Part shown: piece by piece, positions 1,505-43,176 of the stretch
How the letters are laid out: each line of letters begins with the position of its first letter
How positions within the stretch are numbered: position 1 is the stretch's first letter
IMG/VR virus record: IMGVR_UViG_3300033512_000347
Span: 21,083-85,082 of that record
Reading direction: 5' to 3' (one strand)
Source: a virus
DNA length: 64,000 nucleotides
Translations under genes and position numbers: made by a program
Notes under the pieces: model-generated
Told to the model about the DNA's origin: nothing
Databases searched by the model: none
The model's input: the letters and a program-made list of their open reading frames with translations, nothing else

Positions 1505-1715
1505 AATTCGGATCTTTATCTTCATTAATAAATTTTTCTTGAAATTCTTCAAATGTTAATACCGTTCCCCAATAATTATCATTTCCATGTTCAGAACCGT
1601 TTTTTATACCATAATAGGAACCAATACTCCACCTCCATCCACTTGATGTTATATATGATTGTAAGATATCTCTATTTTTATTTGTTACTTTTACACACCA
1701 ATTATTTAAATCCAT
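1491..1715 (-). CDS. Hypothetical protein with C-terminal YEVY motif
   Basis: ORF track; paralogous to 481..759. Confidence 0.65.
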   Translation of the reverse strand: MDLNNWCVKVTNKNRDILQSYITSSGWRWSIGSYYGIKNGSEHGNDNYWGTVLTFEEFQEKFINEDKDPNYEVY

Positions 1716-1733
1716 ATCCTTAATTTTATATCA

Positions 1734-1764
1734 TAAACATATGAAAGTCTTTGATAAAATCAAA
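1734..1764 (-). promoter_or_regulatory. Bacteroidota sigma70-type promoter
   Basis: Minus strand TTTG-N19-TATGTTTA; overlaps inverted repeat 1747..1767. Confidence 0.55.
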
Positions 1765-1796
1765 GACCTTCTTAAAAATATATTTTATTTTATAAT

Positions 1797-2198
1797 TTAT
1801 AGAGTTTTTGGGAAATTCTTTTCTATAAACATAAATAAATCTTCTGGTGTTCTCAAGTATATTTCTTCACCACCAGGGCCTGTTAAAAATTGTTCATCCC
1901 CAGTTTGAATGTCTATTTTTTCATATAAATAGAACTGAATTAGTTGGTATACATCATCACCCCAACTAAATAAGAATATATCATCAATTAAATTAAAAAA
2001 TGGGTCTTCATATGAAGACATATCTAGTCCAAATTGGGATTGGATTATCATAGATTTACCTAGTAATTCTTCATATTTTCTAACTATTGAACAAAAATAT
2101 GTTTTTTTCTTATTCTTTAAAGTTAAATTTTGTCGTCTAATAATCGTATCGGCTTGTAACATTTTGTTAAAACCAACCTTAAGGTTTTTAGGATCCAT
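1797..2198 (-). CDS. Hypothetical protein
   Basis: ORF track. Confidence 0.6.
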   Translation of the reverse strand: MDPKNLKVGFNKMLQADTIIRRQNLTLKNKKKTYFCSIVRKYEELLGKSMIIQSQFGLDMSSYEDPFFNLIDDIFLFSWGDDVYQLIQFYLYEKIDIQTGDEQFLTGPGGEEIYLRTPEDLFMFIEKNFPKTL

Positions 2199-2199
2199 A

Positions 2200-2493
2200 T
2201 TATTTTATTTTGGATTGTAAATCTCTCAATAGAGTAGCATTTTTGTAATCTTCTTTAGAAGCATAATATTTTTCTAATGTTTCTAATGTTGGTTTATATG
2301 ATGATTTTGGGATCATTATTTTAAAATCCTCAACAGTACAAAAAATACATTCTTTTTTATTTTTATTAACAGCTTGTGTTATAATAGGTAAGAACTTATC
2401 ATACACAACAGATTTTACCTGTTCCATGGCTAAACCTACATGAATACATTCTAATGTATCCTCTCTAAATGTTACTTTGGGGATTTTATTCAT
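2200..2493 (-). CDS. Hypothetical protein with C-terminal UVR-like motif
   Basis: EDYKNATLLRD resembles UvrB/C motif. Confidence 0.5.
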   Translation of the reverse strand: MNKIPKVTFREDTLECIHVGLAMEQVKSVVYDKFLPIITQAVNKNKKECIFCTVEDFKIMIPKSSYKPTLETLEKYYASKEDYKNATLLRDLQSKIK

Positions 2494-2494
2494 A

Positions 2495-2851
2495 TTACAT
2501 ACTCATTATTTTTTTAATAAAATCTACCAATGAATCTGTTGATATTGTAAAGTTTAATGATTTATTATTTGGATTACTTTCATCTCCAGTAATTTTCATT
2601 CTATATTTACCAAATTTCATAGTTAATGAATCTTTTAAAGAATCATGTAAACTTTTTAATTCATCTTCAGATAAATTTAATATCATATCTCCTGTTGGAT
2701 TTGTAGGAACTAATTCAAGATTAATACCTTCTTTTCCAATAGTTAATGTTACTTGGAATGTTTCACCATTTATATTTGTTTGTGTTTTTACATCACCACT
2801 TGTTTCTCCTTCTAATATAAGGGATTTTAATGTACCGTTTATTTGTGTCAT
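2495..2851 (-). CDS. Hypothetical protein
   Basis: ORF track; TATTTATA motif upstream (2865..2872). Confidence 0.55.
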   Translation of the reverse strand: MTQINGTLKSLILEGETSGDVKTQTNINGETFQVTLTIGKEGINLELVPTNPTGDMILNLSEDELKSLHDSLKDSLTMKFGKYRMKITGDESNPNNKSLNFTISTDSLVDFIKKIMSM

Positions 2852-2855
2852 ATGT

Positions 2856-3992
2856 TTATTTTTGTATAAATATTAAATCTTTAATATAATTTATCGGAGA
2901 ATGAACATATATATTAAATATATCAATTTCATATGTTTCTCCGGGGGATGTATTTGCTAATATATTTTGTAAATTTTTAATAATTTCAAAATTATTATTA
3001 TCTAGTTTAGAACCATCAAATGATACTAATATATCATTATTTTTTTCATTATCGTAGTATTTTATTCTATCAGATAAGTCAAAAGTAGTATTAGACTGTT
3101 CTTTATCCATATATGTTTTAGCCCAATATCCCATAGGGTCTCCTCCATAATATAAACAATCACACCACGGTTCAAGAATTTCTATTAACTGCTCAGTGCA
3201 GTTTTTAACTATAAAACCTACATTAAATTTATTATTTGAATTCATTGAACCCCATTTACGTAAGAAGTTACGATTTGAATTACGTTCAATGCGTTGAGTA
3301 TTTAATTTCGCTTCTTCAGTAAAACGACTTGTTTTAGATACAAAGTGATAACAGATAGCGTCTAATGAGGTAAAACAATTTAAATTTTGTAATTTAAGAC
3401 GCTTAATTAAATCATCATCTTCACTGAAATATGGGTTAAATATATTATCAAAACCTCCCATATCAAGTAATACTTTACGAGATAAAGCCATAAAGAATGT
3501 AATCCCAGGTTCTGTCTTATTTTCTTGGTTTTGTTGTTCGTAACTTACAAATTCGTGGAAGTTTTTTTCTGTGTTAAAATTCCCCAATTCTGTTCCAAAA
3601 TCTTGAATAATTTTACCAGGACGTTCATGTCCTGCAAATATAGGTGGTTCAATTGTTGTATAACTTACAACATTTTTTGGATTTAAATATTTTTCAATAT
3701 TTTCAAGAAATCCGGGAGCTACAACGATATCGTTATGTAAAAAAACAACATAATCTTTAGTAGCTAATTCAATAGCTTTATTATAAGTATCAGAGAATGT
3801 TTTACGATCTTCCTCCCAATATGTAATAGTATTAGGATCATCTAATTCATCTAACCACATATTAGTCCAATCATCACTTCCATAAGATACAAAAACCAAC
3901 TCAATAGTTGGATACACATCTCGGAATGTCTTATAAAAATGTTGAGTATAATCTAAATTATTTAAACAACCTACTAATACACTTAAATTCAT
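2856..3992 (-). CDS. Glycosyltransferase family 2
   Basis: LSVLVGCLN start, YVVFLHNDIVV (DxD-like), GGFD..F.PYFSEDDDL motif. Confidence 0.85.
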   Translation of the reverse strand: MNLSVLVGCLNNLDYTQHFYKTFRDVYPTIELVFVSYGSDDWTNMWLDELDDPNTITYWEEDRKTFSDTYNKAIELATKDYVVFLHNDIVVAPGFLENIEKYLNPKNVVSYTTIEPPIFAGHERPGKIIQDFGTELGNFNTEKNFHEFVSYEQQNQENKTEPGITFFMALSRKVLLDMGGFDNIFNPYFSEDDDLIKRLKLQNLNCFTSLDAICYHFVSKTSRFTEEAKLNTQRIERNSNRNFLRKWGSMNSNNKFNVGFIVKNCTEQLIEILEPWCDCLYYGGDPMGYWAKTYMDKEQSNTTFDLSDRIKYYDNEKNNDILVSFDGSKLDNNNFEIIKNLQNILANTSPGETYEIDIFNIYVHSPINYIKDLIFIQK

Positions 3993-20497: not shown

Positions 20498-21217
20498 TTA
20501 TTTATTCGGAACTAACCAATATTGGCATTTTAATTCATCTTCTTTGGTAATTAATGATATTATTCCCATAGGATATACTAACATTTTTATTGATGAATTT
20601 GTATTATTATTTAATATTTCCCTAAAATTAGGTACTTTAAAAACAAACTTTGGTAAATCATTATAAATTTCAGTAGGTTGGGAAAATGTAATTTTATTTG
20701 CATATCTTTCTTGAAGACCTATAACAAATTCCAACGTATTTACTTTTTGTTTATCAACTTTAGGTTGAATAGAAAATGTTTCAATTTTTTCTAAAGCATT
20801 ATGAGCTTTAATAAACCTACTAATAAAGTCTTGATCTAATATTAATTCTATTGATGGTTCAGGCAGTGTATTAGATAATGACGCTTCGGATATTAAACCC
20901 AAATCACCTAAATTATATGATAAATCAAATTGATTATCTTTAATTTCCATCTTCATGGCTTTACCATCCTTTTCTACGATATCAATTTCGATAGGATCAT
21001 TACATATTTTAACTAATTTATATAATTGAGTTGTATCATATATACCCAATTCATTATCTTGAAGATTTACAGGAGCATTTAATTCCCCTATGCAATCTTT
21101 TAATGTAGTAGCAAAATTAATTTTAAGATTATTATTATTTATTTTCCATCTAACTTGTTCTGTTAAACCACCTAAATAATAACGCTCTATTATACTTGTC
21201 AATATTTTTTTATCCAT
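20498..21217 (-). CDS. DNA sliding clamp (T4 gp45-like)
   Basis: Size, GIYDTTQLYKL pattern, position between polB and clamp loader. Confidence 0.7.
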   Translation of the reverse strand: MDKKILTSIIERYYLGGLTEQVRWKINNNNLKINFATTLKDCIGELNAPVNLQDNELGIYDTTQLYKLVKICNDPIEIDIVEKDGKAMKMEIKDNQFDLSYNLGDLGLISEASLSNTLPEPSIELILDQDFISRFIKAHNALEKIETFSIQPKVDKQKVNTLEFVIGLQERYANKITFSQPTEIYNDLPKFVFKVPNFREILNNNTNSSIKMLVYPMGIISLITKEDELKCQYWLVPNK

Positions 21218-36849: not shown

Positions 36850-37014
36850 TTATTTCTTCTTAATAAATGCTGACCATATTAAACCAACTAATGTAGTTGA
36901 ACTACCTATAATAGCTTCAACCATAGCTTCGTCAATTATTCCTTTCATTACTAATACTCCACCTACAAAAGTTAATGTATGGCGGATAATTCCTAATACT
37001 TGTTCTTGATTCAT
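36850..37014 (-). CDS. Small two-TM holin-like protein (not in ORF track)
   Basis: Manual translation MNQEQVLGIIRHTLTFVGGVLV...LVGLIWSAFIKKK, directly after endolysin. Confidence 0.7.
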   Translation of the reverse strand: MNQEQVLGIIRHTLTFVGGVLVMKGIIDEAMVEAIIGSSTTLVGLIWSAFIKKK

Positions 37015-37015
37015 G

Positions 37016-37720
37016 TTATTTTATTTTTAATATTTGTCCCACTTTAATTTTATTTGATGACGTTAAATTATTTAATGTTATCAATTTTGAAACTAATGTA
37101 TTATTTTCTTTTGCAATTTTTGTTAATGTATCTCCTTTTTGAATAACATAAGTGTTATTAGTATTTTCTTGGGAATATTCAAACAATATTTTAGCTATAT
37201 TTAAAGCTAAGATTTTTTTATTTTTCTGATATTTCACCATGTCAGATTCATTAGATATAAAACATACTTCTAATAAGATATTTTCTCCATTAAGTCTCAT
37301 CCATCCTAATCTTCCATGATGAGATTCAGCTTCTGTTCTGACTCCGTTATTTCCTCTTTTTACAATACCTAATGTTTCTGATATAGTTAATGATATTTTC
37401 TCAGCAATTGTTTTTTCAAATAAGGTAAATTCTTTAGGAATTAATACTTCAGTACCTGTAGCTTTTGGAGTTGCTGCATTCCAATGGATATCTAATACTA
37501 TTGAGTTTGATGAAGTTATATTTTTGAATTTAATAATAGTTTCAGATAAAATATTTTGATTTTCATCTATTATAGGAGAAATACCAAGGTTTTTAAGTTC
37601 TAACGTTATTAAATCTCTAAGTTCAACAGCTAATTCCCCTTCAATATATCCATTACCAGCGGCCCCTCTATCTTTCCCCACTTTGTTACTATGTCCTGCT
37701 CCTATAAATATTTTACGCAT
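37016..37720 (-). CDS. Endolysin: N-acetylmuramoyl-L-alanine amidase (Amidase_3) plus C-terminal LysM
   Basis: IFIGAGH...E, LDIHWNA, ILLEVCFISN; YVIQKGDTL..IA. Confidence 0.92.
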   Translation of the reverse strand: MRKIFIGAGHSNKVGKDRGAAGNGYIEGELAVELRDLITLELKNLGISPIIDENQNILSETIIKFKNITSSNSIVLDIHWNAATPKATGTEVLIPKEFTLFEKTIAEKISLTISETLGIVKRGNNGVRTEAESHHGRLGWMRLNGENILLEVCFISNESDMVKYQKNKKILALNIAKILFEYSQENTNNTYVIQKGDTLTKIAKENNTLVSKLITLNNLTSSNKIKVGQILKIK

Positions 37721-37985
37721 CTTGTTCTTCTTTACTATTTACTCTATTTCTAATTTTATCCCACACAGTCATAATTGATGTTCCCCCAGCTAATAAAAGG
37801 AAACCATAAAATATATCAACAGCATATTGATTAATTTCTCTAATAAAGAAAAAATCACTAATTAGAATAAATATACCAGATAATATAGCCATTATCCATG
37901 CACTAAACATAGTTAATGATTTTCTACTCCATTTACCATCAGGTGATTTTAATGTATCGTTTATTATTTGGTTTATTAATTCCAT
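37713..37985 (-). CDS. Membrane protein, holin-like
   Basis: GKWSRKSLTMF; two TM segments; adjacent to endolysin. Confidence 0.6.
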   Translation of the reverse strand: MELINQIINDTLKSPDGKWSRKSLTMFSAWIMAILSGIFILISDFFFIREINQYAVDIFYGFLLLAGGTSIMTVWDKIRNRVNSKEEQDA

Positions 37986-37987
37986 TA

Positions 37988-38299
37988 TTATTTCATTCTG
38001 GTTAATATTTCATTCTCTTTCTCTAAATATTTTACTTTAGTTTCTAAGGTTGCTATCTGTCTAGTTAAGTGGATAATAGTATCAACCATTTTAGATTTTT
38101 CTTTCGCAGATTCGATTAATAGTTGTTCTAAATTATTGATTCTGGCTCTTAAATCTTCTCTATACGCGTTTTCATCTAATTTTTCTTCCTTTCTTTGATT
38201 ATCTAATTTATTTAATCTAGTATCGTAAAACTTCCAAGCTCCAGCAGAACCTAGTACTGTTACTAAAGTAACAGCTATTGTAATAAAACTATCTATCAT
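37988..38299 (-). CDS. N-terminal TM plus coiled-coil protein (lysis-associated candidate)
   Basis: Start moved to MIDSF (38299) because the track start spans a terminator. Confidence 0.55.
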   Translation of the reverse strand: MIDSFITIAVTLVTVLGSAGAWKFYDTRLNKLDNQRKEEKLDENAYREDLRARINNLEQLLIESAKEKSKMVDTIIHLTRQIATLETKVKYLEKENEILTRMK

Positions 38300-38342
38300 T
38301 ATTATATTTTTGTAGGTTTTTAATATAACTATAAATACAAAA

Positions 38343-38359
38343 GGCCCTCGAAGAGGGCC
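38343..38359 (-). terminator. Rho-independent terminator after nrdA C-half
   Basis: GGCCCTC-TTC-GAGGGCC then TTTTGTATTT on minus strand. Confidence 0.7.
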
Positions 38360-38386
38360 AATCATTTTTATTAAAATCAATAATTC

Positions 38387-40081
38387 TTAACTACTGCAAA
38401 AAGTACATTCTTCATCTTCTTGTGGGGCGTTGAATACTCGCTCTTTAGGTTTTTCTAGGCCTAAAGATTGTAAAGGTGTTGATGCTGCTTGGGAACGAAG
38501 ATAATACATTCCTGTTTTTAATCCTTTTTTCCAAGCATACATATGCATTGAAGATAATTTACCCACTGTAGGTTCAGCCATCCATAAATTCATACTCTGG
38601 GATTGATCTATAAATACTCCTCTATCTGCTGCCATATCTATAATATCTTTCATCGACATTTCCCAAACCGTTTTGTATCTTTCTCTAATATCTTTTGGAA
38701 TATATTCTAACGACTGGATTGAACCTTTGTTTACAATAACATCATATTTAGTATATTCGTCCCATAATCCTATTTCTTCTAAATCTCTTACTAAATGTTT
38801 ATTAGTAGTAATAAATTCTCCAGCTAATACCCTTCTAGTACCAATATTAGATTTAAAAGGTTCAAATGCTTCATTATTACCCATAATTTGTGCTGTAGAT
38901 GCGGTTGGCATTGGCGCTACTAACAATGAGTTTCTTACTCCATATTCATATATATTTTTCCTTAAACTTGACCAAGAAATAACTAAATCCTCTAATATTT
39001 TATCAGGAGTTTCTACATCCCACAAATCTTGTTGTAATATACCTTGAGAAATTGGAGATCCTTCATAACTCTCATATTTTCCATCTTTTTCTGCTGAATC
39101 ACAAGAAGATCTTAATGCAGCATAATATAAGGTTTCAAAAATATCTTTATTTAATTGTTTAGCTTCTTCACTACTAAATGGTAATTTAAGAATAGCAAAG
39201 ACATCTGCTAAACCTTGCACTCCCCACCCCACAGGTCTATGTCTGTTATTTGAAGTTTTCGTTTCCTTTGTTGGATAAATATTTTTATCAATAACTGTAT
39301 TAAGGTTTTTAGTCCCCCTATAAACTATATTAAATAGTTTAACAAAACTAAATCTCCCTCCTTCGATACATGAAACTAAATTCACTGAAGCTAAATTACA
39401 AACAGCCTGTTCATCTGGTGATGAATATTCTATAATTTCTGTACATAAATTACTTGATTTTATTGTACCTAAATTCTTTTGGTTTGATTTTCTATTCGCT
39501 GCATCTTTGTACAACATATATGGTGTACCTGTTTCTGTTTGGGCTTCTAAAATAGCATTCCATAAATCTCTAGCTTTAATTTTTTTACCAGGCATTTTCC
39601 TATCTTCAATTGCATCTACAATTTTCATATATTCTAAATTAAATTCTTCATTATGAAGTTCATCTAATCTAGTAAAACCAGCTTTAATTTGTTCATTAGG
39701 ACAAGATAGATACCAATCACCATCTATTTCAACTTGATTCATAAACAGATCAGGAATCCATAAAGCCGGAAATAAATCTCTTGCTCTTAACTCCTCTTTC
39801 CCATGAGTTTTTCTTATATCCAAAAGAGTATAAACATCAGAATGCCAAGGTTCTAGATACATAGCAAATGAGCCTTTACGTTTATTACCACCATTATGGA
39901 CTATACCAATATTTTTAACATGGTAATTATGTATTCCATCAACATGGAGATCGTAAACTTTACCTTTGTATTGTGATTTTGAAATAGTGTTTACTTTATT
40001 AAATTTTAATTTGGATAAATCTAATCCTACTTCGTAATAATTTTCTAATTGTATTTCTTCCATATTATTCTTCATATTCAT
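38387..40081 (-). CDS. nrdA: Class Ia ribonucleotide reductase alpha, C-terminal fragment fused to C-intein
   Basis: After VHN: [42 protein letters not shown], terminal CTFC. Confidence 0.95.
39893..40081 (-). other. Split intein C-fragment (up to 63 aa)
   Basis: Block [13 protein letters not shown] and block G IVHN; next residue Gly. Confidence 0.9.
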
Positions 40082-40376
40082 TGTTTTCTTCTTTATCAGT
40101 CATAAATTCCCCATTTTTTATAAAATATCTTGAATTTTCTCTATCATCTTCATTATCTTCTAGATATTCAGTATCTACTAAATATTCAATAGCTTCTTCA
40201 GGATCAGAAATTAAATTAAATTTATTTAAATCTACTAACTCCCACATATCTTCATCTTGGAAATGAGATATATGATCCGTTACTTCTTTTTTCCATTGTT
40301 TGAAATAACTTAAGGGATTATTTACTTTGATTTCGTTTATACCTGCAAGTTCTTGCATTCGTTTTATTTCTTTCAT
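40065..40376 (-). CDS. Acidic hypothetical protein with [11 protein letters not shown]-terminal motif
   Basis: ORF track; coupled to flanking genes by overlaps. Confidence 0.65.
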
Positions 40377-40906
40377 ATTTTATTATATTTCTTTCTATTT
40401 TGTGTTCTAGTTAATATTTGTAGATTATTATAATGATGTTTACCTCCTTTAGAAAGAGGTAATTTATGATCTACTTCATGTTTTACTCCTGTCTCTAAAG
40501 TTAATCTTTTAGATTCTTTATAAAGATTTAAAATTAGTTGTTGTTCTTCTTTACTTAATGAGTTCAAATCCACTCTTTCTTTTAATCTACGTCTATTAAC
40601 TCTATTTAAATAATCTTCACTATTTTCTTTAACATAATTTCTTCTCCAAATTTGAAATTCCTCAGTTTTATACCTTTCAATTCTTTTATTTTCAAAATAA
40701 CATGGATTTAATTCATAATATTCTTTATTATACTGTGATACTCCTTTTTTATTTTGAATATTATATAGTTTCCTAGCTTCCCAACTATGACCATTTTTAA
40801 ATGAATCTTTAGGTTGTATGGAGTTAGTTATATTACAATATTTCATTCCATACAAACCTAAAGTTATATTATACTCATTTATCTCTTTTCTTGTTAATTT
40901 CTTCAC
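40373..40906 (-). CDS. HNH homing endonuclease between nrdA halves
   Basis: HEVDHKLPLSKGGKHHYNNLQILTRTQNRKK. Confidence 0.88.
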   Translation of the reverse strand: MKKLTRKEINEYNITLGLYGMKYCNITNSIQPKDSFKNGHSWEARKLYNIQNKKGVSQYNKEYYELNPCYFENKRIERYKTEEFQIWRRNYVKENSEDYLNRVNRRRLKERVDLNSLSKEEQQLILNLYKESKRLTLETGVKHEVDHKLPLSKGGKHHYNNLQILTRTQNRKKYNKI

Positions 40907-41030
40907 TATTAATATCTTTTATAATTAATTTTTCAACAAATTCTTTTAATGAAATATCATTCTCGGAAACATAAATCTTAGCTAGTTTCCAAATTTGTTC
41001 ATCTATTTGTATTTGTTTTAATTTTTTCAT
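40875..41030 (-). CDS. Small ribbon-helix-helix-like protein (51 aa, not in ORF track)
   Basis: Manual translation MKKLKQIQIDEQIWKLAKIYVSENDISLKEFVEKLI...; TATTTATA motif 5 nt upstream. Confidence 0.6.
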   Translation of the reverse strand: MKKLKQIQIDEQIWKLAKIYVSENDISLKEFVEKLIIKDINSEEINKKRDK

Positions 41031-41051
41031 CGTATATAAATATTAATAATT

Positions 41052-41067
41052 TCTCGAGAACTCGAGA
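41052..41067. terminator. Inverted repeat TCTCGA-GAAC-TCGAGA after nrdA N-half
   Basis: Stem 5 nt after the stop codon; weak U-tract. Confidence 0.4.
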
Positions 41068-41071
41068 TATT

Positions 41072-42223
41072 TTAAATAGTAATAATTAAGTCATCTAATC
41101 CAACATATCTAGCTTCTACCCATTCTGGTAAAACCACTTTAGAATTTAATCTATCTTGTAATTCTTTTTCTGTAAATTTGTTTCCATCTTTAATTACATA
41201 AAATGGGTGTTTTGGAGTTACTTTTACACCATTAATTTCCATAATTTCACCTTCATAATCAGAGATCATAATCTCATGAAGAGGATAAAATTTACCATCA
41301 CTAGTAATAACTTTATGTTCTAAGGTTAAATCTTTAAATTTAACAAAACCTTGATTGGTTTCCACTTCTTGTTCTCCATCAAAACATTGATCCCAGTATC
41401 TAGCTAATTCGTTGTAAGTTCTTAAATAAGGTAAAATTCCATTGGAAGTACCATTAGTTGAATGAATTCTAGAACCTGCCGCTCTTAAATTAGATATAGA
41501 TAATCCTATACCTCCAGCAAATGAAGAAATTATAGATACATCTTTAGCAGTATCCATAATACCATCTTTACTATCTCCTTTATTATTGATTAAAAAGCAA
41601 GATGCTAATTGTTGTCCTTTTAAACCTGAATTAAATATTGTTGGTGTTGCATGAGTGTATTCCCAGTTTGATAATGATTGGTATGTTTTTAAGGCATCTT
41701 CCCAATTTGTTGTTACTGTTATAGCCTCTCTCATATACATATCTTGTGGGCGTTCTAGTATAGTATTATCTATTTTAAGTAGGTATGCTTTTTCTAAGGT
41801 TTTAAAACCAAAATAATCAAGCATGAAATCCTTTTCATAGTTTATGACCGATTGTATATTTTCAAATCCATAAGATTTAACATCTTTTATATATTGTTCG
41901 TTTAATAATCCATTTTTTTCTAAAATATTGAATACTTCTTCAAAACTACCCAATGTTTCTTTATGTAGAGCAGACATAGCAATATTAGCTGCTAATTTAC
42001 TATAATCTGGGTGATTTGTTGTCAAAGATGCAGCTGTGTCTGCTGCTAGTTTATCTAATTCTGTTGTTGTAACTCCATCATATAATCCTTGCACAACTTT
42101 CATTGATACTTCAAGATGGTTTACTTTTAATCCAGTACTAGCTTTTTTAATTCTTGTTTGAATTTTTCCAAGATCTATATTTACTAATCTTCCGTTACGT
42201 TTTTTTACTTTTAATTCTTCCAT
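41072..42223 (-). CDS. nrdA: Class Ia ribonucleotide reductase alpha, N-terminal fragment (ATP cone) fused to N-intein
   Basis: VKKRNG ATP cone, ERPQDMYMR, HATPTIFNSG, QLASCFL, GGIG, LARYWDQ then intein. Confidence 0.95.
   Translation of the reverse strand: MEELKVKKRNGRLVNIDLGKIQTRIKKASTGLKVNHLEVSMKVVQGLYDGVTTTELDKLAADTAASLTTNHPDYSKLAANIAMSALHKETLGSFEEVFNILEKNGLLNEQYIKDVKSYGFENIQSVINYEKDFMLDYFGFKTLEKAYLLKIDNTILERPQDMYMREAITVTTNWEDALKTYQSLSNWEYTHATPTIFNSGLKGQQLASCFLINNKGDSKDGIMDTAKDVSIISSFAGGIGLSISNLRAAGSRIHSTNGTSNGILPYLRTYNELARYWDQCFDGEQEVETNQGFVKFKDLTLEHKVITSDGKFYPLHEIMISDYEGEIMEINGVKVTPKHPFYVIKDGNKFTEKELQDRLNSKVVLPEWVEARYVGLDDLIITI
41075..41386 (-). other. Split intein N-fragment (104 aa)
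   Basis: Block A CFDGEQEVET, block B VTPKHPF, ends ..VGLDDLIITI-stop. Confidence 0.9.
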
Positions 42224-43176
42224 TAAAATTCTTCTCCAAAATTAATCTCACTTTTTTCGGTACCTACACCAGCTTTTCTATAATCACTTACTTTCTTTTC
42301 AAAGAAGTTAGCTTGTCCTTGTAATGCTATCATTTCCATAAAACCAAAAGGTTGTTTTACATTAAAAACTTTTTCACAACCAAAATCTGATAGTAATCTA
42401 TCTGTAACAAATTCTAAATATTGAGACATTAATTGGGAGTTCATTCCAATTAAACTCACAGGTAAACTTTCTAAAATAAATTCTTTCTCAATTTCTAATG
42501 CACTTAATAAAATTTCTTTAATTCTTTCTTGTGGAACTTTACTAACTAAATGATTATTATGTAGATGGACCGCAAAATCACAATGCATTCCTTCATCACG
42601 AGAAATTAATTCGTTTGAAAACGTTAATCCTGGCATTAATCCTCTATTTTTTAACCAAAATATTGAACAAAAACTTCCACTAAAGAAAATACCTTCTACA
42701 GCGGCAAACGCAATTAAACGTTCTGCAAATGATGGAGAATCTATCCATTTTAATGCCCAATCTGCTTTTTTCTTAATAGCAGAAAAGTATTCTATTGCTT
42801 TAAATAATTTATTTTTTTCAATTGGATCTTTTACATAAGTATCAATCAAAAGTGAATATGTTTCACTATGTATATTTTCCATCATTACTTGGAAACCATA
42901 GAAGAATTTAGCTTCTGGGTATTGGACTTCAGATAAGAAATTCTCTGCTAAGTTTTCGTTTACAATTCCATCAGAAGCTGCAAAAAATGCTAAAATATGT
43001 TTAATGAAATACTGCTCTTGTGGAGTTAATTCATCAAATCTGTCATCTTTTAAATCGATTTCTTCAGCAGTCCATATAGATGCTTGTTGTTTTTTATACA
43101 TTTCCCACAAGTCGGGATGTTTAATAGGAAAGATTACAAATCTATCCTTATTTTCTTTTAAAATTGGTTCCATCAT
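42223..43176 (-). CDS. nrdB: Class Ia ribonucleotide reductase beta
   Basis: [38 protein letters not shown]. Confidence 0.97.

Follow-up and report, generated by a model that had tools for sequence, protein, structure and literature searches.

A split intein followed by glycine fractures the ribonucleotide reductase gene of an uncultured marine phage in specificity loop 2

Friedrich is said to have described, in 2007, the nrdA-a / mobE / nrdA-b arrangement of phage Aeh1, in which the gene for the large subunit of ribonucleotide reductase (RNR) is carried in two pieces. Both an nrdA split by an HNH-type gene (Aeh1) and the fractured-gene arrangement as such (Dassa 2009) are already known. In the fractured genes of Dassa 2009 (NrdA-1 to NrdA-7 and NrdJ-1/2), the NrdA loci are broken directly before the thiyl-radical Cys, and the endonucleases are of the GIY-YIG or Vsr-like type (PMC2677866). 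Ligation of proteins, including ligation in trans, with no nucleophilic side chain taking part is documented solely for A-type bacterial intein-like (BIL) domains (PMC4031507). Here, we analysed a stretch of 64,000 nt (the window; positions 21,083 to 85,082) of IMGVR_UViG_3300033512_000347, an 85-kb IMG/VR virus record that is ~52% complete by CheckV estimate. The window has a G+C content of ~27% and derives from an uncultured marine phage, the RNR genes of which are most like those of Cellulophaga and Tenacibaculum phages. Between 38387 and 42223, it carries an nrdA gene that is divided by the two halves of an intein. Like the loci of Dassa 2009, this one is of phage origin, has an RNR host gene and consists of adjacent co-oriented half-genes in order, each with an intein half and with a free-standing endonuclease gene between them. 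It also shares with those loci a hairpin upstream of the endonuclease cassette and a cassette whose 3' end overlaps the downstream half-gene.

The nrdA gene lies on the minus strand, as do nrdB, the parts of the insert and the terminator described below, and is cut exactly between Gln279 and Gly280. The insert comprises 1,494 nt (41386..39893), opens with Cys (TGT), closes with Asn (AAT) and is followed by Gly (GGT). It contains, in this order, the N-terminal intein half (IntN), a stop codon, a conserved hairpin, a 51-aa open reading frame (ORF), an HNH gene, a 103-aa ORF and the C-terminal intein half (IntC). The upstream half-gene (N-gene; 42223..41072, 383 aa) encodes a 279-aa N-extein (41387..42223) that ends in LARYWDQ, joined to an IntN of 104 aa (41072..41386, stop codon included). 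The downstream half-gene (C-gene; 40081..38387, 564 aa from its first ATG) encodes an IntC of 63 aa (39893..40081) and a C-extein of 501 aa (38387..39892, with its stop codon), which opens with Gly (GGT, 39892..39890) and continues as GNKRKGSFA. As its relatives begin at Met7 (MEIQELENYY), the C-gene probably starts at this residue (40063), leaving an IntC of 57 aa.

An empty-site allele is provided by an IMG/VR relative (L002) with an uninterrupted NrdA of 780 aa, that is, 279 + 501, whose residues 1-279 and 280-780 are collinear with the N- and the C-extein, respectively. The joined exteins of the window (780 aa) are 91% identical to this protein, and the junction is free of indels. Because the uninterrupted allele is collinear with the joined exteins, the boundaries of the insert are exact and other placements are impossible. 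L002 reads DQGGNKRKG across the junction, and therefore no residue is hidden at the +1 position. Further relatives without an intein are L003 and P0201-P0223. As expected of an intein, the insert thus sits in frame within a conserved part of a housekeeping protein, and alleles that lack it exist.

The N-extein contains the ATP-cone, the all-alpha domain, the first 72 positions of the RNR barrel and the ASCF motif (Pfam PF03477, PF00317 and PF02867). The C-extein matches PF02867 (2e-165; profile positions 68-523) and holds NLCTE, VCNLAS and the C-terminal CTFC. Both chains hence carry essential cysteines, as had been proposed in the original prediction, a reading of this DNA from its sequence alone. 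Comparison of a contiguous relative with the PDB shows a match to residues 268-288 of yeast Rnr1 on one side of the intein and to residues 289-316 on the other, which places the insertion at Q288|G289. From established structural work on RNR, we take this position to be specificity loop 2 (Q294-G295 in E. coli), and the predicted location in loop 2 was thereby confirmed. It was also correctly anticipated that the site differs from that of the published fractured nrdA loci, which lie directly N-terminal to the thiyl-radical Cys (PMC2677866).

Together, the two intein halves resemble a functional split Hint domain. IntN opens with Cys1 in block A (CFDGEQEV), contains T-P-K-H in block B (VTPKH) and ends with LIITI, while IntC contains block F (VYDLHV) and block G (GIVHN). 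In Pfam, IntN gives weak Intein_splicing and Vint matches and IntC matches Intein_splicing at positions 107-155, the C-terminal third of the model. The halves align end to end, over blocks A, B, F and G, with contiguous mini-inteins of the same site. An alignment of 15 such mini-inteins shows no variation at C1, at the Thr and His of block B, at the Asp of block F or in the terminal His-Asn, and the window halves retain all residues for splicing step 1 (Cys1, T-x-x-H) and step 3 (block-F Asp, His-Asn). Added to this alignment, IntN spans through the strand equivalent to 'GDxxxxP' and IntC resumes in the next loop. In our reading, the intein would be broken at the loop in which large relatives hold an endonuclease-sized insert, and a break at this position fits the model of Dassa 2009, in which a free-standing endonuclease invades an intein. 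The predicted fracture of nrdA by split Hint (intein) halves is borne out by the motifs that had been named, all of which are present, and by the empty allele and the Hint alignment. We consider the locus a genuine fractured gene, in which a mini-intein in RNR loop 2, between a conserved Gln and a conserved Gly, is broken by a mobile cassette consisting of a small ORF, the HNH gene and a variable ORF. The NrdA of this phage is consequently synthesised in the form of two polypeptides.

Structure prediction of the complex between residues 265-383 of the N-gene product, containing IntN, and residues 1-80 of the C-gene product, containing IntC, gave an ipSAE of 0.89 in 3 runs, with 250-270 contacts, compared to 0.00 in all 3 controls. 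The two Hint halves are thus predicted to dock into one domain. The mark of 0.89 is reached by 51 of 78 solved complexes and by 2 of 108 mismatched pairs; as split inteins are represented among solved complexes, the score reflects likeness to split inteins and is not proof of binding. Relative to the occupied alleles of L045 and L046, the ratio of nonsynonymous to synonymous substitution rates (dN/dS) is 0.13-0.16 for IntN, 0.12-0.13 for IntC, 0.09-0.20 for the exteins and 0.10-0.27 for the HNH gene. The intein halves are under purifying selection and as constrained as the enzyme itself.

The residue following the intein sets this locus apart. A class 1 intein is recognised by Cys, Ser or Thr at +1, and the window has Gly (GGT), as do all split members found. 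The known intein classes all need one of these three residues, to whose side chain the N-extein is moved (PMC4031507). Given the Gly at +1, canonical trans-splicing is impossible, and the ordinary trans-splicing that had been assumed in the original prediction does not hold. BIL domains, which have no such residue, cannot form the branched intermediate; for A-type BILs, splicing by amine attack on the thioester has been proposed, and one BIL is reported to trans-splice 'without nucleophilic side chains' (PMC4031507).

Our best reading, to which we assign slightly less than an even chance, is that thioester formation and Asn cyclisation are followed by an attack of the freed Gly amine, which ligates the exteins. 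The halves would dock while the exteins co-fold into one alpha/beta barrel, and Cys1 would form the thioester. Cyclisation of the Asn would then release the alpha-amine of Gly+1, and this unhindered amine, held beside the thioester by the folded exteins, would attack it and generate a native Gln-Gly bond. The product would be a seamless NrdA of 780 aa, obtained by the route proposed for A-type BIL domains. Ligation is favoured by the finding that split and contiguous members, at 30-45% identity, strictly keep T-x-x-H and His-Asn as well as Cys1/Ser1 and the Asp of block F, and by a loop-2 intein family that is fixed in bacterial nrdA genes. Moreover, Gly offers the least hindered amine, and exteins that are halves of one barrel would be expected to hold this amine next to the thioester.

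Several points weigh against ligation. Two split lineages have Ser1, giving an oxyester, which is a poorer target for an amine. Split NrdA works without ligation in phage Aeh1 (Crona et al., PMC3045599), and BIL domains yield mainly N- and C-cleavage products and not the spliced product (PMC4031507; PMC7664689). Furthermore, the loop-2 family is by its sequence an ordinary intein and not a BIL. A profile of the 15 mini-inteins, compared with the PDB, matches the Pho RadA intein at 2e-9 and the BIL domain 2lwy at 9e-7, and it ranks eight intein sequences (Pho RadA, MJ0781, TFIIB, PI-PkoII, gp41-1, Pho CDC21, Spl DnaX) above 2lwy. A special kinship to BIL domains had been considered, as a single mini-intein matched only 2lwy among the Hint domains of the PDB, but was dropped in view of the higher rank of ordinary inteins with the family profile. 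If ligation by amine attack holds, it would therefore be a property of true inteins. Stated in full, the proposal is that a split intein in an essential phage enzyme ligates in trans without a side-chain nucleophile at +1, the Gly amine attacking the Cys1 thioester, and that this represents a further mechanistic class of true inteins, widespread in the RNRs of phages, giant viruses and bacteria. We regard this proposal as possible, but would not call it probable.

The default for a class 1 intein without a +1 nucleophile is cleavage without ligation. Hydrolysis of the thioester together with Asn cyclisation would shed the intein pieces and leave the exteins as a non-covalent two-chain NrdA that is nicked in loop 2. 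This would explain the conservation of Cys1 and His-Asn equally well, and it has precedents in the mostly cleaved products of BIL domains (PMC4031507; PMC7664689) and in the active two-chain NrdA of phage Aeh1 (PMC3045599). It sits less easily with an intein family that is fixed in the nrdA genes of Bacteroidota, nrdA alone having been looked at in those genomes. Also, loop 2 is the RNR element that reads out the specificity effector, and a nick would leave charged termini on its Gln and first Gly. On balance, we deem cleavage alone unlikely, although it has to be taken seriously. The intein halves might instead act as a non-catalytic clamp that merely holds the NrdA pieces together and stays attached, like the tails of Aeh1 NrdA-a and NrdA-b, which according to their authors may be split-intein remnants (PMC3045599). 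The strong docking interface predicted for IntN and IntC would suit this role as well. However, a clamp has no need for Cys1/Ser1, T-x-x-H, the block-F Asp and His-Asn, yet these are kept in all split lineages examined (30-45% identity), and specificity regulation would be expected to suffer if a Hint domain of ~160 aa persisted in loop 2, which lies at the dimer interface. Because the conservation of the catalytic residues is left unexplained, the clamp is disfavoured and in our view improbable.

The remaining explanations deny the locus a function or its existence. With only ~52% of the phage genome at hand, the fractured nrdA might be decayed and the phage might rely on the RNR of its host. 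All pieces are, however, under strong purifying selection across three occupied lineages, the frames are intact, and the record encodes no second RNR large subunit and has retained nrdB next to this one, so that we give decay very little weight. An artefact of assembly or sequencing, imposed on a contiguous gene, would have to recur: independent JGI, ENA and Logan contigs carry this fractured allele with 83-92% identity over IntC and its flank, and this excludes an assembly artefact. The 1,494-nt insert with its own conserved genes also speaks against an artefact, the chance of which we consider negligible. Ligation by the Gly amine thus remains our preferred, albeit tentative, reading.

A search for inteins at DQ|GG had been suggested with the original prediction. 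A full HMMER search, queried with IntN and the 30 extein residues that precede it, retrieved 347 proteins at E < 1e-3. Contiguous and split forms were counted among the best 150 of these 347 matches, a sample biased to relatives of the query. Contiguous inteins at the same site number ~100, with Gly at +1 in 69 of 101 (HN|GGGKR, HN|GGNKR or HN|GGKR) and Ser in the other 32 (NQ|C...HN|SGKR). The site is not unusual but a very common one for inteins in metagenomic, phage and Bacteroidota RNRs. The same matches contain 24 candidate split N-halves (the window and three added loci included), which end 95-140 residues past the junction and some of which may be contig-truncated. All 24 open with Cys (22) or Ser (2), and T-x-x-H is present in 21. 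A word-indexed search with IntC revealed at least 15 C-halves that begin with an IntC of 56-66 aa, all of them with HN|GG.

The split form recurs in many phage lineages, and both halves were confirmed at the DNA level in six of them: the window, L045, L046, L007-L009, L010 and L001. L045 and L046 carry the cassette as in the window; L047 is partial. L007-L009 have Ser1 and, between the halves, a 47-aa ORF and a 160-aa HNH gene product. In L010, the split halves are separated by a 55-nt spacer and the endonuclease gene is absent, while L001 (LR756504.1, a 636-kb phage) has an unrelated 307-aa ORF between the halves. The tree of intein N-parts has poor resolution, with good support for 12 of 143 branches, and we make no claim on the number of split origins. 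In bacteria, an exact-pattern scan of 185,579 species genomes identified HN|GGGKRKG in ~28 species of Bacteroidota (Saprospiraceae, Lewinellaceae, Cytophagales and others). In those species for which the complete gene lies within the retrieved sequence, the nrdA frames are open, with 1,150-1,230 aa and an intein of 336-358 aa at VDQ|C...HN|G. The E. coli-type junction HN|GGVRGGA gave 10 matches in the same genomes and was discarded, all being chance matches.

Individual members of this family show further peculiarities. The C-half gene of L045 (4501-6165) carries an altered loop 2, reading HN|GGDNRKGA past the junction where the window has GGNKRKGS, and fractured alleles thus differ in the specificity loop itself. 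The C-half gene of L001 is cut again (2795-3140, minus strand) three codons past the intein site (HN|GGG / KRKGSFA) by ~310 nt without an ORF. The upstream exon ends with U and this insert ends with G, as in group I introns, and the insert has no match in Rfam; we regard it as a putative intron, whose site would lie 9 nt from that of the intein. An Rfam search likewise found no intron in the window region, and the sole match, mir-4818, was far below threshold and is noise. The 307-aa ORF of L001 (3362-4285, minus strand) contains repeated CxxC/treble-clef-like motifs and has only a weak DUF4379 match. Its product is possibly a member of the 'Vsr-like' endonucleases of Dassa 2009, in which case the same intein would have been broken independently by a different element. 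L010 encodes a 651-aa DnaB helicase (1606-3561) with a faint intein match, a possible second intein of this replication module.

The cassette that separates the intein halves begins with a spacer of ~40 nt after the IntN stop codon (41031-41071), in which a palindrome (TCTCGAG-TT-CTCGAGA, 41052..41067), located 5 nt past the stop codon and flagged as terminator-like, is followed by TAATATTTATATA. Between lineages, the spacer shows stronger conservation than the coding sequence on its flanks, and together with its palindrome it persists in the L007 lineage, although IntN is only 42% identical there. Folded as RNA, the hairpin is no more stable than shuffled sequences (z = -0.7), and the case for the hairpin therefore rests on its conservation. 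It may serve as a hairpin/attenuator, as promoter of the cassette or as operator for the product of the small ORF. This 51-aa ORF (40875..41030), the first gene of the cassette, has only weak DUF6364 and PHROG matches and shares 52% identity with the 47-aa ORF that occupies this position in L007; its residue pattern may, in our reading, point to a ribbon-helix-helix-like fold. Its last 32 nt are read in a different frame as part of the HNH ORF, an arrangement found also in L007 with an overlap of 26 nt.

The free-standing HNH gene (40373..40906, 177 aa) matches Pfam HNH (PF01844, 1e-5) and PHROG 1035 'endonuclease VII' (3e-14), shares 37% identity with its L007 counterpart and probably encodes a homing endonuclease. 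Its start codon is GTG in the window and ATG in relatives; as the residues before the first internal Met are conserved, the GTG start is probably real. The 103-aa ORF (40065..40376) is very acidic, with a net charge of -17, and overlaps the first ATG of the C-gene by 17 nt; in L047, the HNH ORF itself overlaps the C-gene. The slot of the 103-aa ORF holds 62 aa in L045 and 94 aa in L046 and is empty in L047 and L007, and neither the ORF nor these counterparts have a match in Pfam or PHROG. Because the slot holds ORFs of unrelated length or nothing in close relatives, the 103-aa ORF appears to be a fast-changing passenger of the cassette. The exteins of the empty L002 are closest to the window (91% identity), followed by those of the occupied L046 (86%) and L045 (77%). 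Occupied and empty alleles are interleaved and do not track extein relatedness, from which the cassette appears to move among closely related marine phages.

The fractured gene is embedded in an RNR unit. The gene for the small subunit, nrdB (42223..43176, 317 aa), lies directly upstream of the N-gene, whose start its stop codon overlaps, and the nrdB-nrdA order is the same in L002, L007, L045 and L046 (Pfam Ribonuc_red_sm on called genes). A GC-rich hairpin with a subsequent T-run, 28 nt past the stop codon of the C-gene (38343..38359), is likely the terminator of the nrdB-nrdA unit. A scan for sigma-70 promoters gave no more matches than in shuffled sequences. Downstream of nrdA (36850-38380), a lysis-type cluster with an N-acetylmuramoyl-L-alanine amidase with LysM and small membrane proteins is found together with a coiled-coil ORF, in the same order as in L002 and L046.

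The window extends the fractured-gene phenomenon to a second site and to an endonuclease type that is new to it, HNH plus a small ORF. The alternatives are that organisms routinely ligate proteins without a nucleophile or that RNR copes with a loop 2 that is permanently nicked, and each would be a novelty, be it for intein chemistry or for RNR allostery. Split-intein tools are limited by the scar that stays behind because Cys, Ser or Thr is needed at +1; if ligation is true, a scar-free split-intein tool would need just a Gly at the junction. The split form would be the simplest and cleanest object on which to test nucleophile-free ligation, as precursor and product differ widely in size, cis-folding is no confounder and the halves comprise just 104 and 57 aa. 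In the literature searched, we found no paper on a split intein at RNR loop 2 or on RNR inteins that have Gly at +1 or are nucleophile-free, and no naturally split BIL.

Compared to the loci of Dassa 2009, the window thus differs in its Gln|Gly site in loop 2, in its HNH/endonuclease VII-like enzyme with the small upstream ORF and in its Gly at +1, the published loci being assumed to trans-splice canonically. With phage Aeh1, it shares a class Ia nrdA that is split by an HNH-family endonuclease gene and of which both chains are needed (PMC3045599), as well as N-side and C-side tails of different net charge, -8 and ~0 in the window. The Aeh1 tails, however, are short, domain-less and unprocessed, and the break follows the thiyl Cys (PMC3045599), whereas the tails of the window are Hint halves with catalytic residues and the break is in loop 2. 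A-type BILs, such as that of Clostridium thermocellum (PDB 2lwy), resemble the window in the Hint domain, Cys1, the C-terminal His-Asn and the lack of a +1 nucleophile; in contrast to the conserved RNR, their hosts are variable, non-housekeeping proteins, in which they do not occupy conserved sites. The nrdA intein of Azotobacter spans aa 442-800 (PMC4465626). It is probably located at the loop-2 site as well, as judged from a coordinate match only, residue 442 of 5im3 (Pseudomonas NrdA) being aligned with the +1 Gly. InBase may list this element as 'Avin RIR1 BIL', in which case its missing nucleophile would already have been recognised by the curators. The contiguous loop-2 inteins of Bacteroidota nrdA and of many metagenomic and viral RNRs share with the window the insertion point, the block motifs and, mostly, the Asn|Gly junction. 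These are single polypeptides, often with a LAGLIDADG-sized insert (~357 aa), whereas the free-standing HNH cassette of the window interrupts the domain in this same loop.

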